Shown: piece after piece, positions 3,340 through 60,930 of the stretch | How positions within the stretch are numbered: position 1 is the stretch's first letter | Layout of the letters: every line of letters begins with the position of its first letter | Assembly (NCBI GenBank): GCA_951406725.2 | Contig: OX597833.1 | Location: 51,770,001-51,834,000 of the forward strand | Direction of reading: 5' to 3' | DNA length: 64,000 nt | DNA from: Octopus vulgaris | Taxonomy: Eukaryota | Made by a program: the position numbers and the translations under genes | The notes under the pieces: generated by a model | Databases searched by the model: none | Seen by the model: the letters and a program-made list of their open reading frames with translations, nothing else | What the model was told of the DNA's origin: nothing

Positions 3340-4370
3340 GGCAATCGTGTGTTAATCAGGAATGATCAAACACCTTTATTCTATTCGAATTGCAGCATGT
3401 GATAAGAAACAGAGTCTATAGCGAATGAAAATCTAATAGCAACGCCCAAACCAGATCTACATGCTAAGAAGATTTTACAGTACGTTTGGTGGAATACATC
3501 AGATATTGTTCACTTCGAATTCTTGGAACAAATGGAAAAGAATCATCACAGAACGTTATCGTCAACAATAGCTTTTCAATTAAGCTTTATTCAAAATAGA
3601 ACCTGCCCTAGTCAACAAAATGCGAGTCAACCTGCAACATAATACTTTCTACTAAAAGCAAAAGGCCTGAAATTTTGGGGGAGGGCACTAGCCGATCACA
3701 TTGACCTCAGTGTTTCACTGGTACTTAATTTATCGATTCGAAAGGATGAAAAGTAAAGTCGACCTCGCCGTAAGGACGGACGAAGTACCTATTTCTTTAC
3801 TACCCACAAGGGGCTAAACACAGAGGGGACAAACAAGGACATACAAACGGATTAAGTCGATTATATCGACACCAGTGCGTAACTGGTACTTAATTTATCA
3901 ACCCTGAAAGGTTGAAAGGCAAAGTCGACCTCGGCGGAATTTGAACTCATAACGTAGCGGGAGACGAAATACCGCAAAGCATTTTGTCCGGCGTGCTAAC
4001 GCTTCTGCCAGCTCGTCACTTTTATCCTCAAGAATAATAATGCAAGACCATATTCGACGCAAATAACACAAGCAATGGTAAATTCGTTAGCCCTGAATCT
4101 CCACCCCCTACACATCAACCTAGTATCATCGGGTTCTCACTCATTTAGGTCATTTGAACGCTTTACTAATGGGAAAAAAATTTAAGAAGTGGGGACGATG
4201 CTGAAACTTCATTATTTATTTATTTATTTATTGTTTTTGTCCGGGGAATCAGAGAAATGGTCTCCAGGTACGAAAATGTTTTGATTAACGACAACGATTA
4301 CGTTTTGAATGAATAAATATATTCACGTTTATGCTGATGTGAACCCCTCATATGAAAAGCGACATTACGT
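3340..4370 (+). pseudogene. Degraded mariner transposase, C-terminal half, interrupted by a SINE B dimer
   Basis: Fragments TPKPDLHAKKILQYVWWNTSDIVHFEFLE and PALVNKMRVNLQHN (to 3643), resuming NARPY at 4039. Many stops and frameshifts. Confidence 0.75.
3641..4020 (-). mobile_element. SINE family B dimer (full unit plus headless unit with an older-type tail)
   Basis: Reverse complement of GAGCTGGCAGAA...GAGTTCAAATTCCGCCGAGGTCGACTTTGCCTTTCA. Junction GAAATA|GGTACTTCGTC at ~3789. Confidence 0.85.
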
Positions 4371-7477: not shown

Positions 7478-7637
7478 GTTCGCCTGTCGCTACTTTCTGA
7501 GATCAAATTTCGCCGAGGTCGACTTTGCATTTTACCCTTTCGGGGTCGATAAATTAAGTACCAATGAAACACCGTGGTCGATGTAATCGACTAGTCCCCT
7601 CCCCCAAATTTCAGGCCTTGTACCTATAGTAGAAAAG

Positions 7638-25765: not shown

Positions 25766-25819
<54 letters not shown>

Positions 25820-26023
25820 CATTTATCCTTTTCTTTTTTTTCTTTTTATTTCTTTTTTTTTGTTCTTTTCTTCCCTTTTACGATCCCTCTTGATCGAAAA
25901 CCTACGCCACCCCCTATTTTTTTTTGTTTCTTTTGTTTTTTGTTTTTTTCATCCCCCAAAAGAAAAGCTCTACCTTGTAACTTGTCCCATCTGTGTGCAG
26001 CCCTGTGTGGCCAATAAAGAAAC

Positions 26024-26063
<40 letters not shown>

Positions 26064-26107
26064 ATATCTATCTATCTATCTCTGTATATATACATATATA
26101 TATATCT

Positions 26108-26339
26108 GTTTCTTTATTGCCCACAAGGGGCTAAACATAGAGGGGACAAACAAGGACAGACAAACGGATTAAGTCGATTACATCGACCCCAGTGCGTAAC
26201 TGGTACTTAATTTATCGACCCCGAAAGGATGAAAGGCAAAGTCGACCTCGGCGTGATTTGAACTCTGAACGTACCGGCAGACGAAATACGGCTACGCATT
26301 TCGCCCGGCGTGCTAACGTTTCTGCCAGCTCGCCGCCTT
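26108..26339 (-). mobile_element. SINE family B, full length
   Basis: Reverse complement of the family B consensus. Confidence 0.92.
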
Positions 26340-28982: not shown

Positions 28983-29365
28983 TTCTTTTCTACTCTAGAC
29001 ACAAGGCCCGAAATTTTGGGGGAGGGGGCCAGTCGATTAAATCGATCCAGTACTTAATTTATTGACCCCGAAAGGATAAAAGGCAAAGTTGACCTCGGCG
29101 GAATTTGAACTCAGAACATAAAAGACAGACGAAATACCTATTTCTTTACTGCCCACAAGGGGATACACAGAGGGGACAAACAAGGACAGACAAACGGATT
29201 AAGTCGATTATATTGACCCCAGTGCGTAACTGGTACATATTTAATCGACCCCGAAAGGATGAAAGGCAAAGTTGAACTCGGCAGAATTTAAACTCAGAAC
29301 ACTAAGACAGACGGAATACTGCTAAGCATTTCGCCCGACGTGCTAACGTTTTAACCAGCTTGCCA
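28983..29365 (-). mobile_element. SINE family B dimer (full unit plus headless unit with an older-type tail)
   Basis: Junction GAAATA|GGTATTTCGTCTG on the minus strand at ~29138. Confidence 0.88.
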
Positions 29366-34236: not shown

Positions 34237-34660
34237 GGATCTTATCGGTTTGAACGGCAGTTTTTTCTAGCGGTGTCATATGAAATTGTCACCCATAATT
34301 ATGACCCTAGTATCGATCTATTGCATTTCAATCTATTTTACGGTTAGGGTTAGGTAGGGTTAGTTAGGGTTAGGGTTAGGGGTGGGGGGAAAGGTTATAT
34401 TTTTTTCTTCACAAATGTACATAAACCCAATCTGTTTCTTAAACGAGGGATATATTCATACGGCACAGAATGTTATTTATTGGTTGAAATTGCAGAAATT
34501 GAAGAAAAAAAAAACAAATATCTTACAAACTATAGAATTTTCTCAATAAAGTCAAGAGGAAAAGATGTTTTATAAACACATTCTACCAGTATACGAAGTT
34601 CAAAATTTTTTAGTTACCTTGAAATTATGTTAAAAACTGCCGTTCAAACCGAAAAGATCC
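34237..34660. mobile_element. MITE with 29-bp GG-initiated TIRs and an 8-bp TSD (Merlin-like), containing TTAGGG repeats
   Basis: GGATCTTATCGGTTTGAACGGCAGTTTTT / AAAAACTGCCGTTCAAACCGAAAAGATCC. TSD CGATACTC at 34229-34236 and 34661-34668. TTAGGG-like run at ~34343-34382. Confidence 0.85.
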
Positions 34661-42146: not shown

Positions 42147-42372
42147 ATATACCTACAAATGTTTTGTAAATTTCAGGATTACAGGTGCAACAATCTTAAG
42201 AGACGTTTCCACCTGTCAGTTTCCAGATAGCCATCATAAGTAGAAGAGTTTCATAAAGTAAACGTCCTGAATATATATCCCATATATATATGTGTGTATG
42301 TGTGTGTATGTATGTATAATTTTATATCATATGTTCTGAGGGAAATTACGCAACCAAGCATTTATGTATATA

Positions 42373-42552
42373 TATTTCTTTACTACCCACAAGGGGCTAA
42401 ACACAGAGGGGACAAACAAGGACAGACAAACGGATTAAGTCGATTATATCGACCCCAGTACGTAACTGGTACTTAATTTATCGACCCCGAAAGGATGAAA
42501 GGCAAAGTCGACCTCGGCGGAATTTGAACTCAGAACGTAGCGGCAGACGAAA
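42373..42552 (-). mobile_element. SINE family B, headless copy with a ~26-bp TSD
   Basis: TACGCAACCAAGCATTTATGTATATA at 42347-42372 and 42553-42578. The 5' end falls at (GTA)TTTCGTCTGCCGCTAC. Confidence 0.9.
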
Positions 42553-42753
42553 TACGCAACCAAGCATTTATGTATATAAGTATGTGTAAGCGTGTATGTC
42601 TGTTGTAAGTGTGTGTGAGGGACTTGCTTGTATGTGTGATCGTGTGTGTTTGTCTATACTTGTGAGCATGCGTGCGCAAACAATTTTATATATTGAATCT
42701 TAATTTTTAACCCTCTCAAAAAAATACAACGTAGAATACGAGGTTCCGGGGAA

Positions 42754-52414: not shown

Positions 52415-53217
52415 TGGCCCAGTGGTTAGGGCAGCGGACATCACGGTCGTAAGAACTAAGGTGGCGAGCTGGCAGAAACGTTAGTACGCTGGGCGAAATG
52501 CGTGGCCGTATTTCGTCTGCCGCTACGTTCTGAGTTCAAATTCCGCCGAGGTCGACTTTGCCTTTCATCCTTTCGGGGTCGATAAATTAAGTACCGGTTA
52601 CGCACTGGGGTCAATGTAATCGACTTAATCCGTTTGTCTGTCTTTGTTTGTCCTCTCTGTGTTTAGCCCCTTGTGGGTAGTAAAGAAATAGGTCGTAAGA
52701 ACGCAGTTTCGATTCCCAGACCGGGCAATGTGAGTGTTTATTGAGGAAAAAGACACCTAAGCTCCATGCGGCTCCGGCGGGTGGGGGTAGACATCGCTGT
52801 ACTCTTTCACCACAACTTTCTCTCACTCTTTCTTCCTACTTCTGCCACGAAGCAGAGGAACCATGGTGTAACCCACAATGGTGTGGTAAACCTTCAGACC
52901 CTAGTTTAGATTACGAATCCTCACACACACGGCGGAGGCGGCAACAACAACTACCGTGGTGGCGTAATGGCCCAGTGGTTAGCGCAGCGGACTCACGGTC
53001 GTAAGAACGCGATTTCGATTTCAAGACCGGGCATTGTGAGTGTTTATTGAGGAAAAGACACCTAAGCTCCATGAGGCTCCGGCGGGTGGGGGTGGACTCT
53101 TTCACCACAACTTTCTCTCACTCTTTCTTCCTACTTCTGCCACAAAGCAGAGGAACCATGGTGTAACCCACTATGGTGTGGTAAACCTTCAGACCCTAGT
53201 CTAGATTGCGAATCCTC
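52415..53217 (+). repeat. Tandem duplication of a family C-variant SINE head plus downstream block; the first copy is interrupted by SINE B
   Basis: AGCAGAGGAACCATGGTGTAACCCAC...AAACCTTCAGACCCTAGT occurs at ~52851 and ~53146, each preceded by the same C-like head. Confidence 0.85.
52457..52690 (+). mobile_element. SINE family B inserted in a C-type SINE head
   Basis: 12-bp TSD GGTCGTAAGAAC at 52445-52456 and 52691-52702. Confidence 0.93.
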
Positions 53218-53635: not shown

Positions 53636-53885
53636 GAGTCGTCCCGGGACGGATTAGGACCCATAGAGGCCCTAAGCACTTCAGAGGTTTCGGTGCACCT
53701 GTATATACGGGGTGTTCAAAAAGTCTCTCCGCAATAAGCATTTTATTGCAAAATAAATATGAGTCGTCCCGGGACAGATTAGGACCCATAGAGGCCCTAA
53801 GCACTTCAGAGGTTTCGGGGCACCTGTATATACAGGGTGTTCAAAAAGTCTCTCCGCAGTAAGTATTTTATTGCAAAATATATAT
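53636..53885. repeat. 125-bp tandem duplication spanning a transposon TIR
   Basis: GAGTCGTCCCGGGAC...GGGTGTTCAAAAAGTCTCTCCGCA...TTTTATTGCAAAATA at 53636 and 53761. Confidence 0.92.
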
Positions 53886-55377: not shown

Positions 55378-55970
55378 GCGGCGGCGAGCTGGCAGAACCG
55401 ATAGCACGCCAGGCGCAATGCTTAGCGGTATTTTGTCTGCGTTACGTTGTGAGTTCAAATTCCGCCGAGGTCGACTTTGCCTTTCATCCTTTCGGGGTCG
55501 ATAAATTAAGTACCAGTTACGCACTGGGGTCGATGTAATCGACTTAATACCTATGTCTGTCCTTGTTTGTCCGCTCTGTGTTTAGCCCCTTGTGGGTAAT
55601 AAAGAAATAGGTATTTTGTCTGCCGTTACGTTGTGAGTTCAAATTCCGCCGAAGTCGACTTTACCTTTCATCCTTTCGGGGTCGATAAATTAAGTACCAG
55701 TTACGCACTGGGGTCGATGTAATCGACTTAATACCTATGTCTTTCCTTGTTTGTCCCCTCTGTGTTTAGCCCCTTGTGGGTAATAAAGAAATAGGTATTT
55801 CGTCTGCCGTTACGTTGTGAGTTCAAATTCCGCCGAGGTCGACTTTACCTTTCATCCTTTCGAGGTCGATAAATTAAGTACCAGTTACGATGTAATCGAC
55901 TTAATACCTATGTCTGTCTTTGTTTGTCCCCTCTATGTTTAGCCCCTTGTGGGTAATAAAGAAATAGGTA
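55378..55970 (+). mobile_element. SINE family B head-to-tail trimer (one head plus three ~184-bp bodies)
   Basis: GGTATT starts at 55427, 55610, 55794 and 55967. Each junction reads GAAATA|GGTATT. Confidence 0.93.
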
Positions 55971-56469
55971 TTCTTGTTGGGTGTTTGTCATGAATGTGTC
56001 TCTTTCGTGTGGAGTAGTGGTGTTTTTCAGTTCATGCAGCAGGACTATCTTTCGTTTTTGGTATTGGTTGATTTCTGTGTATATTTTCTTTTTGATGTTT
56101 TAGTTTTCTTTCTTGATGTTCTGTGAGTCCTAACCGCTTGGCAGATGAATTGATAGATTTTGTGTATAGCTTGAAGGAGATGCATGTTTTAATGAAGTGG
56201 AGCTGTCGGGCAGCTATCTTGATTTTACATTTTCTTCAAATATAGTTGATGCTTATTATACTTTACACTGCTACCGTTCTTTTAAGTTTGTTCCTTGTCA
56301 ACTTTTCCCTGGTGAAAGACTATTCCCGAACCGCTGCAAATTCCACTCCTCACAGTAAATTCTCTACACCCTTTCTGCCAATTTTTCTAAATAAAATACA
56401 AACCTCGCCGACGCAGACCACCGCCAGTCTGTAATGAGTATTCCTTTCTCCTTTCACTAACAGATTTAG

Positions 56470-60368: not shown

Positions 60369-60930
60369 AAGGCGGCGAGCTGGCCGAAACGTTAGCATGC
60401 CGGGCGAAATGCTTAGTGGTATTTCGTCTGCCGCTACGTTCTGAGTTCAAATTCCGCCGAGCCCGACTTTGCCTTTCATCCTTTCGGGGTCGATAAATTA
60501 AGTACCAGTAAATTAAGTACCACTGGGGTCGATATAATCGATTTAATCCGTTTGTCTGTCCTTGTTTGTCCTCTCTGTGTTTAGCCCCTTGTGAGTAGTA
60601 AAGAAATAGGTACTTCGTCTGCCGCTACGTTCTGAGTTCAAATTCCGCCGAGCTCGATTTTGCCTTTCATCCTTTCGGGGTCGATTAAATAAGTACTAGT
60701 TACGCACTGAGGTCGATATAATTGACTTAATCCCTTTGTCTGTCCTTATTTGTCCTCTCTGTGTTTCGCCCCTTGTGTGTAGTAAAGAAATAGGTATTTC
60801 GTCTGCCGCTACGTTCATCCTTTCAGGATCGATAAATTAAGTACCCGTTGTGTACGGGGTTCGGTCTAATCGACTGGCCTTCTCCCCCAAAAAACATTTC
60901 GGGTCTTGTGGCTCGTGGAAAAAAGTATTA
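60369..60930 (+). mobile_element. SINE family B head-to-tail trimer; the last unit has an older-type tail
   Basis: Junctions GAAATA|GGTA(C/T)TTCGTCTGCCGCTAC at 60609 and 60793. Confidence 0.92.

Follow-up and report, generated by a model that had tools for sequence, protein, structure and literature searches.

How does a SINE come to stand head to tail with copies of its own family, joined at a fixed internal position? The question is raised by the locus at 55378 within a 64,000-nucleotide stretch of Octopus vulgaris DNA (the window), where three units of an element termed SINE B follow one another. A preliminary description of the window offered two models: in the first, the SINE RNA is cut in a hairpin loop and its 3' piece is circularised and copied by rolling reverse transcription; in the second, the endonuclease of a partner LINE prefers this site in older copies of the element. 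Its account of the arrays themselves was borne out, as in all four AAAGAAATA is joined to GGTA(T/C)TT, the ~184-bp multimer unit is recovered as a TRF period of 184, and the last unit carries a different, older-type tail in three of the four.

The window holds 24 matches to the 233-bp SINE B or its relatives (Table 1). Junctions lie between 55609 and 55610, 55793 and 55794, 60608 and 60609, and 60792 and 60793 on the + strand, and between 3790 and 3789 and between 29139 and 29138 on the - strand. A general repeat search of the window returned predominantly microsatellites; a 125-bp tandem duplication with 95% matches (53636-53885) and a short (TTAGGG)n tract (34338-34381) are also present. The consensus of 233 bp was derived from 69 full copies and yielded 307 hits in an unselected 1.264-Mb sample, composed of the window itself and 120 fixed 10-kb stretches, of which 10 lie next to the window. 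The SINE B head contains box-like motifs that we take to be A and B boxes, while ARAGORN reported 0 genes and no tRNA family was matched in Rfam at E<=10. The core may resemble that of the MetaSINE superfamily or of the octopus elements OK, OR1 and OR2; two supplements of PMC4824008 contain no matching text.

Table 1. SINE B arrays, single copies and the candidate partner LINE, in window coordinates
Feature	Position	Strand	Remarks
Array 55378, unit 1: full SINE B	55378..55609	+	head (A box, hairpin, B box), shared core, LINE-like tail
Array 55378, unit 2: 184-bp body from consensus position 50 (GGTA)	55610..55793	+	
Array 55378, unit 3: 11-bp internal deletion	55794..55966	+	
Second array, unit 1: full B	60369..60608	+	
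Second array, unit 2: B body	60609..60792	+	
Second array, last unit with older A-type tail	60793..60925	+	
Full B joined at position 50 to older copy	3790..4020	-	
Last unit of 3641 array, older A-type tail	3645..3789	-	
Full B joined at position 50 to older copy	29139..29365	-	
Last unit of 28983 array, older A-type tail	28985..29138	-	
5'-truncated B monomer from position 51	42373..42555	-	26-bp duplication at 42553-42578 and 42347-42372
5'-truncated copy, older A-type tail, within (ATT)n repeat	7478..7630	+	not B
Full B monomer in non-SINE DNA	52458..52690	+	12-bp target duplication begins GGT
3' end of candidate partner LINE (L1 superfamily), SINE tail, then (TATC)n	25780..26024	+	

The three units at 55378, the first of which belongs to the GGGTAAT subfamily, are 2.4-3.2% apart, and their nearest dispersed copies differ from them by 0.6-2.6%. 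The variants GTTGTGAG and ATACCTATGTC, previously thought private to these units, recur across the fetched set, where the motif GTTGTGAGTTC occurs in 29 sequences and ATACCTATGTC in 26 (window counted in); they are subfamily markers. Directly 3' of unit 3 stands GGTATTC (55967-55973), for which no matching upstream duplication was found. With a single subfamily represented three times and the duplication not found, this array may have arisen by duplication in place or by the copying of a ready-made multimer.

Across the genome (2.8 Gb, microsatellite-rich), the junction of the tail to position 50 has 43,521 exact matches against 0 for a reversed control, which is far above chance, and the unselected sample has it at 29 of its 88 B tails. 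The junction was also present in contig loose ends of all four sequencing runs (four organism labels). When contigs of these runs were compared with a young-B/old-A dimer, paralogous copies swamped the search; none spans the locus, and the empty site was not recovered. A set of 101 arrays comprised 81 dimers, 16 trimers and 4 tetramers; nine overlapping loci had been removed for this comparison, the L024/L025 overlap remains in it, and later analyses were de-duplicated by flank. Under the circle model the units of one array should be clonal, but the median distance is 0.094 within arrays versus 0.103 between them, and most adjacent units have no rare variants in common. Pairs less than 3% apart make up 8% within arrays versus 0.2% between arrays, and these near-identical neighbours, a minority, are likely products of local duplication or co-transposition. 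A SINE-derived satellite was considered and rejected, as the arrays have just 2-4 units and are not homogenised. In annotation, such 184-bp stacks would be miscalled satellites or dimeric families.

Probable insertion into older copies

Evidence that new elements enter older ones comes from loci with two heads. A pattern of old core followed by new head gave 224 matches at position 50 versus 10 and 21 at two control positions, the former pattern having three degenerate bases in its target part and the control patterns none. Pattern-selected loci were the first 30 matches in contig order. Inspection of 29 two-headed loci showed a canonical structure in 21: the old head, a 14-16-bp stretch from GGTA, a complete new B, the same stretch again, and the old body. 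In 8 of the 21, both copies of the stretch carry the same non-consensus bases, indicating that they are true target duplications. Duplications of 9-20 bp also accompany 30 of the 37 headed copies inspected. Two-headed loci constitute ~0.5% of junctions, ~99% of the products being single-headed.

The order of units within arrays agrees in direction. The last unit, when not B, is more diverged than the adjoining B in 29 of 33 pairs (0.080 versus 0.044, p=1e-5), a measure that leans on consensus building for the heterogeneous older types; multimers always ending in an older, more diverged unit had been named beforehand as the outcome that would refute a circle. B-B pairs run in the same age direction by 33 to 20 of 57 (p=0.03). 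Younger GGGTA subfamilies stand 5' of the older GGGCAAT subfamily in 25 B-B pairs and in the reverse order in 1, and TA stands upstream of TG in 7 pairs versus 1, with private divergences of 0.056 for CA, 0.044 for TG and 0.028 for TA. Last units are heterogeneous (pairwise distance 0.177): in 30 unselected arrays the older type accounts for 12, B for 10 and truncated units for 8, proportions close to the 57:53:46 of solo copies.

The expectation that the old head is kept upon insertion failed, as the head of single-headed dimers derives mostly from the new element; at position 63 the old allele is found in 1 of 15 first units versus 11 of 15 last units. The head lacks the GG target in 11 of 81 first units. 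A B variant with CC for CG at positions 49-50 has lost its own GGTA target (for example at window 26106-26337); it occurs in 26 of 93 non-junction full copies and in 11 of 81 first units and is a possible escape allele. At one locus (L030:1500-1560), the insertion has its 3' end 29 bases inside the second unit, and a duplication of 22 bp flanks the entire structure; the template may have been a read-through transcript, or the target an older, truncated copy.

Our preferred reading, to which we assign a probability of roughly 0.6, is that the arrays grow as new copies insert one after another, by target priming, into older ones, and that pairing of the RNA 3' end likely selects the site. The unit at 60793 would then be the pre-existing target copy. 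The second of the early models thus retains its insertion into older copies, supported by two-headed loci with target duplications, while its endonuclease preference is doubtful for the reasons given below.

Landing sites and the candidate partner LINE

B subfamilies differ in one or two bases just 5' of AAAGAAATA, and these bases correlate with what follows the tail: GGGTA(G/A)T tails are followed by GGTA and GGGCAAT tails by AGAA. Genome-wide counts were 7,230 for CAAT+AGAA, 1,174 for CAAT+GGTA, 1,631 for TART+AGAA and 5,713 for TART+GGTA[not T], the last of which omits most position-50 junctions, and the odds ratio for the association of subfamily and motif is at least 21. A second junction, linked to GGGCAAT, joins the B tail to position 17 of the head (AGAA[A/T]CGTTAGC; 3,665 exact matches; for example L255-L284, L034, L053, L068 and L089), with some junctions 217-218 bp apart. 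Among unselected GGGTA monomers in unique DNA, 10 of 19 have an upstream duplicate that opens with GGT, and 3 of 6 CAAT monomers have one that opens with AGAA; the presence of the motif in the upstream copy shows that it stood in the target beforehand. The duplicates have no excess of mismatches in bases 1-4 (4 of 76 positions, a small number from a sample partly selected on the downstream motif) and so bear no direct trace of RNA-templated bases.

Not every GGTA is used alike. A B tail is carried by 30 of 115 GGTA sites at position 50, by 1 of 259 antisense sites in the same SINE, and by 19 of 6,162 sites elsewhere, so the four bases set a general preference to which longer homology or context adds ~85-fold at position 50. 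An antisense GGTA within the core of the SINE, with 496 exact matches, was considered as a third hotspot and dropped, being used at the background rate only. The GGGCAGT subfamily is mixed, with AGAA in 7, GGTA in 6 and TATA in 4 of 22, and a TATA-targeting subfamily, apparent in 4 of 5 cases of the unselected sample, was likewise set aside when the preference proved weaker in a larger, selected sample.

A candidate partner was identified through its tail, which is identical to that of SINE B at 39 of 47 aligned bases. This LINE encodes PF03372 (APE endonuclease), PF00078 (RT) and PF13966 (zf-RVT) domains, and long open ORF2 frames, of about 1,130-1,180 codons, are numerous; its best LINE hit in a PDB structure search was human L1 ORF2, and the ESM Atlas returned just 'reverse transcriptase'. 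Judged by sequence, the partner belongs to the L1 superfamily, and an ORF1 zinc knuckle (below the cut-off), the lack of a poly(A) tail and a microsatellite target would place it in the Tx1 clade. The available part of PMC8967140 lists L1-Tx1 as expanded in coleoids. The many near-identical long ORF2 frames in clusters suggest that the LINE was probably active recently. Such clusters, with members a few kb apart within (TATC)n, lie in genome G000 on C1 near 19-27 kb, 84.38 Mb and 195.45 Mb, and on C12 near 13.55 Mb. In the window, a single TATC/TA microsatellite contains both a LINE 3' end and a SINE B, with their tails facing each other (25780-26337).

SINE B and the tail-sharing LINE do not have a target in common. 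Genome-wide, the LINE tail precedes TAT 9,068 times, RGWA once and the SINE position-50 site 0 times. If one enzyme places its own RNA at TATC and SINE RNAs at GGTA or AGAA, its site is most simply set by the RNA end. An endonuclease preference as the cause of the site is doubtful because the tail-sharing LINE never joins the site and lands at TAT, and because the site follows the SINE subfamily.

Sequential insertion could also be accommodated by a succession of partners, in which the site is set by the endonucleases of one or more LINEs, cutting at GGTA and at AGAA, that had separate periods of activity and have since become scarce or extinct. This version is compatible with all of the evidence for sequential insertion, the agreement of duplicate copies in bases 1-4 suits it, the differing ages of the subfamilies fit a succession of LINE partners, and Tx1-clade targeting is described as mainly endonuclease-determined in the available part of PMC4494074. 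Only 23 of 377 tails in fetched DNA have no SINE core just upstream; 11 of these belong to the one LINE family, and no second tail-sharing family was found among the 377, although a divergent partner could have been missed by the protein search, which scored 142 of 29,734 candidates. Against a succession of endonucleases stand the TAT preference of the lone tail-sharing LINE seen, the use of different motifs by subfamilies that are one or two tail bases apart and overlap in age range, and the background use of the antisense GGTA of the same SINE. We consider it unlikely.

Less likely alternatives: joining at the RNA level and composite sources

The circle model fails the tests by which it was to be refuted. 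Headless copies beginning at the site do not form a distinct class: the tested range contains 27 truncated B copies, of which 3 begin at positions 48-54 (p=0.10), including the very example from which the idea arose, and among the 207 B copies preceded by unique DNA, 170 have their full length. That example, at 42373, is indeed headless with a 26-bp duplication, but no special break need be invoked, since its duplicated target is similar to the part of the SINE head that immediately precedes the break, and ordinary microhomology truncation suffices. The second supposed stand-alone B copy, at 7478, is in fact a fragment with an older tail. The hairpin at 60402-60429 on the + strand (11-12 bp, between the A and B boxes) does exist, and in the MFE fold its 3' arm opens with the junction site, but the fold is unexceptional (z -1.48; 13 of 200 shuffles equally good). 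No ribozyme family appeared among Rfam hits at E<=10. With no headless peak, unrelated units, last units of other or older type and a second junction outside the loop, loop cleavage followed by circularisation is unsupported.

In a broader form, the SINE RNA would be cut at the loop or the polymerase would jump between templates, and the 3' piece would be ligated, circularised or chained and then inserted whole. The position of the site at the edge of the hairpin loop, the new-type heads on first units and the minority of near-clonal arrays are all consistent with such joining, as are five loci in unique DNA (L153, L161, L162, L170 and L175) at which a head fragment reaching to ~62-65 precedes the full head. 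The true target duplications at the site, the heterogeneity and greater age of last units, whose types mirror genomic abundance, and the opening of duplications in unique DNA by the same motif argue against it, along with the absences and the second junction noted above, and we hold RNA-level joining to be improbable. At four of the five loci, the head fragment lies inside the target duplication and may represent a template jump after full-length cDNA synthesis. At four other junctions (L055, L107, L169 and L178), GAAATA is repeated ahead of GGTA, as if priming had been broken off and begun again.

Retrozymes and U6/L1 ligation chimeras also give rise to retro-copies that are multimeric or chimeric and have a constant joint. 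SINE B differs from both in that there is no ribozyme match among the Rfam hits, no rule of clonal units and no peak of ends at the joint, and identification as a retrozyme-like circular retroelement was rejected on the same grounds, with neither clonal multimers nor monomer ends at the cleavage site.

The proposal that a few composite sources (head-B-B or head-B-A), together with unequal exchange or slippage, made most of the junctions and that de novo insertion is rare would account for the match between first unit and head, for near-clonal arrays such as 55378 with its one subfamily, and for duplications that flank whole arrays (for example L010, L011, L025 and L028), but it too is improbable, as the last units are too diverse and too old for few sources, rare variants are not common to most adjacent units, and age runs from young to old in the 5' to 3' direction.

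A proposed mechanism and its relatives

The preferred reading, insertion into older copies guided by the RNA end, leads us to propose the following series of events. B transcripts would read past AAAGAAAUA into the flank, which would be the old target duplication. The partner LINE would nick the target just 5' of GGTA, the RNA would pair with the freed strand, and reverse transcriptase would start at a fixed point 3' of the tail, requiring about 4 paired bases. A second nick would follow about 15 bases further on. As the flank would be the duplicated target, the motif on which a copy landed, GGTA or AGAA, would pass to its daughters. From position 50, a source would produce RNA with a long extension matching every SINE copy, which would explain the heavier use of that site relative to other GGTA. 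Were the cDNA simply to anneal to the duplicated target, the old head would survive, and the new-type heads therefore call for an extra replacement step. Homologous joining of the cDNA to the old head would remove the duplicate head, so that each event would add 184 bp and recreate the target; either the cDNA would displace the old head or the two heads would collapse later, and this is the weakest step of the scheme.

Parts of this scheme have precedent in the available portions of the sources. Priming with 4 matching bases has been shown for human L1 (PMC3649969), target-like RNA ends anneal in SART1 and R1Bm (PMC7265360, which cites Anzai 2005), and upstream homology yields precise 5' joints in R1 and R2 (PMC2718515). 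A more far-reaching proposal, which we hold at slightly less than even odds, is that the target is inherited through RNA and not protein, the 3' flank programs the daughters, one LINE enzyme serves TATC, GGTA and AGAA, and the lineage that landed within its own family became self-homing and overwrites old promoter heads with fresh ones.

Among the closest parallels is SINEU-3 of crocodilians, with its proposed Tx1-type partner Tx1-Mar. As far as the available part of PMC4494074 describes it, this SINE likewise has a strong preference for another repeat, and its tandem copies sandwich a target duplication and are explained by sequential insertion. SINEU-3 and its LINE share a Mariner target, whereas SINE B targets its own family, changes target by subfamily and differs in target from the tail-sharing LINE. 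The flank pairing described for R1Bm, SART1 and R2 in the available parts of PMC7265360 and PMC2718515 is likewise similar, in that the RNA 3' end or flank pairs with nicked DNA, duplications of ~14 bp result, and precise 5' joints arise where the cDNA pairs with homologous target sequence upstream. Those elements are autonomous, with a fixed target and a specific endonuclease, while SINE B is non-autonomous and appears to carry a switchable target in its flank. In the snap-velcro priming of L1 (PMC3649969, in part), ~4 matches at the primer end likewise suffice and more help, but there poly(A) pairs with T-tracts, and in SINE B the paired bases would be of mixed sequence and specific to the subfamily. 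Tandem SINEs of bivalves and SINE-derived satellites of squamates, as presented in the available parts of PMC11481361 and PMC10702118, are also head to tail, some of them separated by duplications, and are explained mainly by unequal recombination; SINE B arrays differ in having 2-4 mostly unrelated, age-ordered units and an internal joint that recurs unchanged at more than 43,000 places.

The open literature searched yielded no description of a SINE with a fixed internal target in its own family that varies by subfamily; Repbase or subscription papers could already name the family or its dimers. The mechanism is built from known elements, but in this combination and on this scale it appears not to be known. 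The relative roles of endonuclease and RNA-DNA pairing in target choice have been studied mostly in L1 and a few site-specific elements, and SINE B offers a natural experiment of tens of thousands of events with near-identical RNAs, apparently one enzyme and three landing motifs. If the proposal is true, the partner would be an RNA-programmable integrase of the L1 superfamily, the SINE would hide in and refresh its own old copies, the nesting would give the order of SINE subfamilies, and the overwriting of heads, repeated at tens of thousands of loci, would amount to prime-editing-like change occurring in nature.

Two further kinds of sequence were seen. Pieces of SINE form tandem arrays with periods of 72, 118 and about 370 bp in G000 (C6:27514189-27514658, C27:10128353-10128617 and C11:15543193-15543959), which are small SINE-derived satellites. 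At L220:7447-8322, on the - strand, there is a 292-codon frame that by eye resembles a Tc1/mariner transposase.
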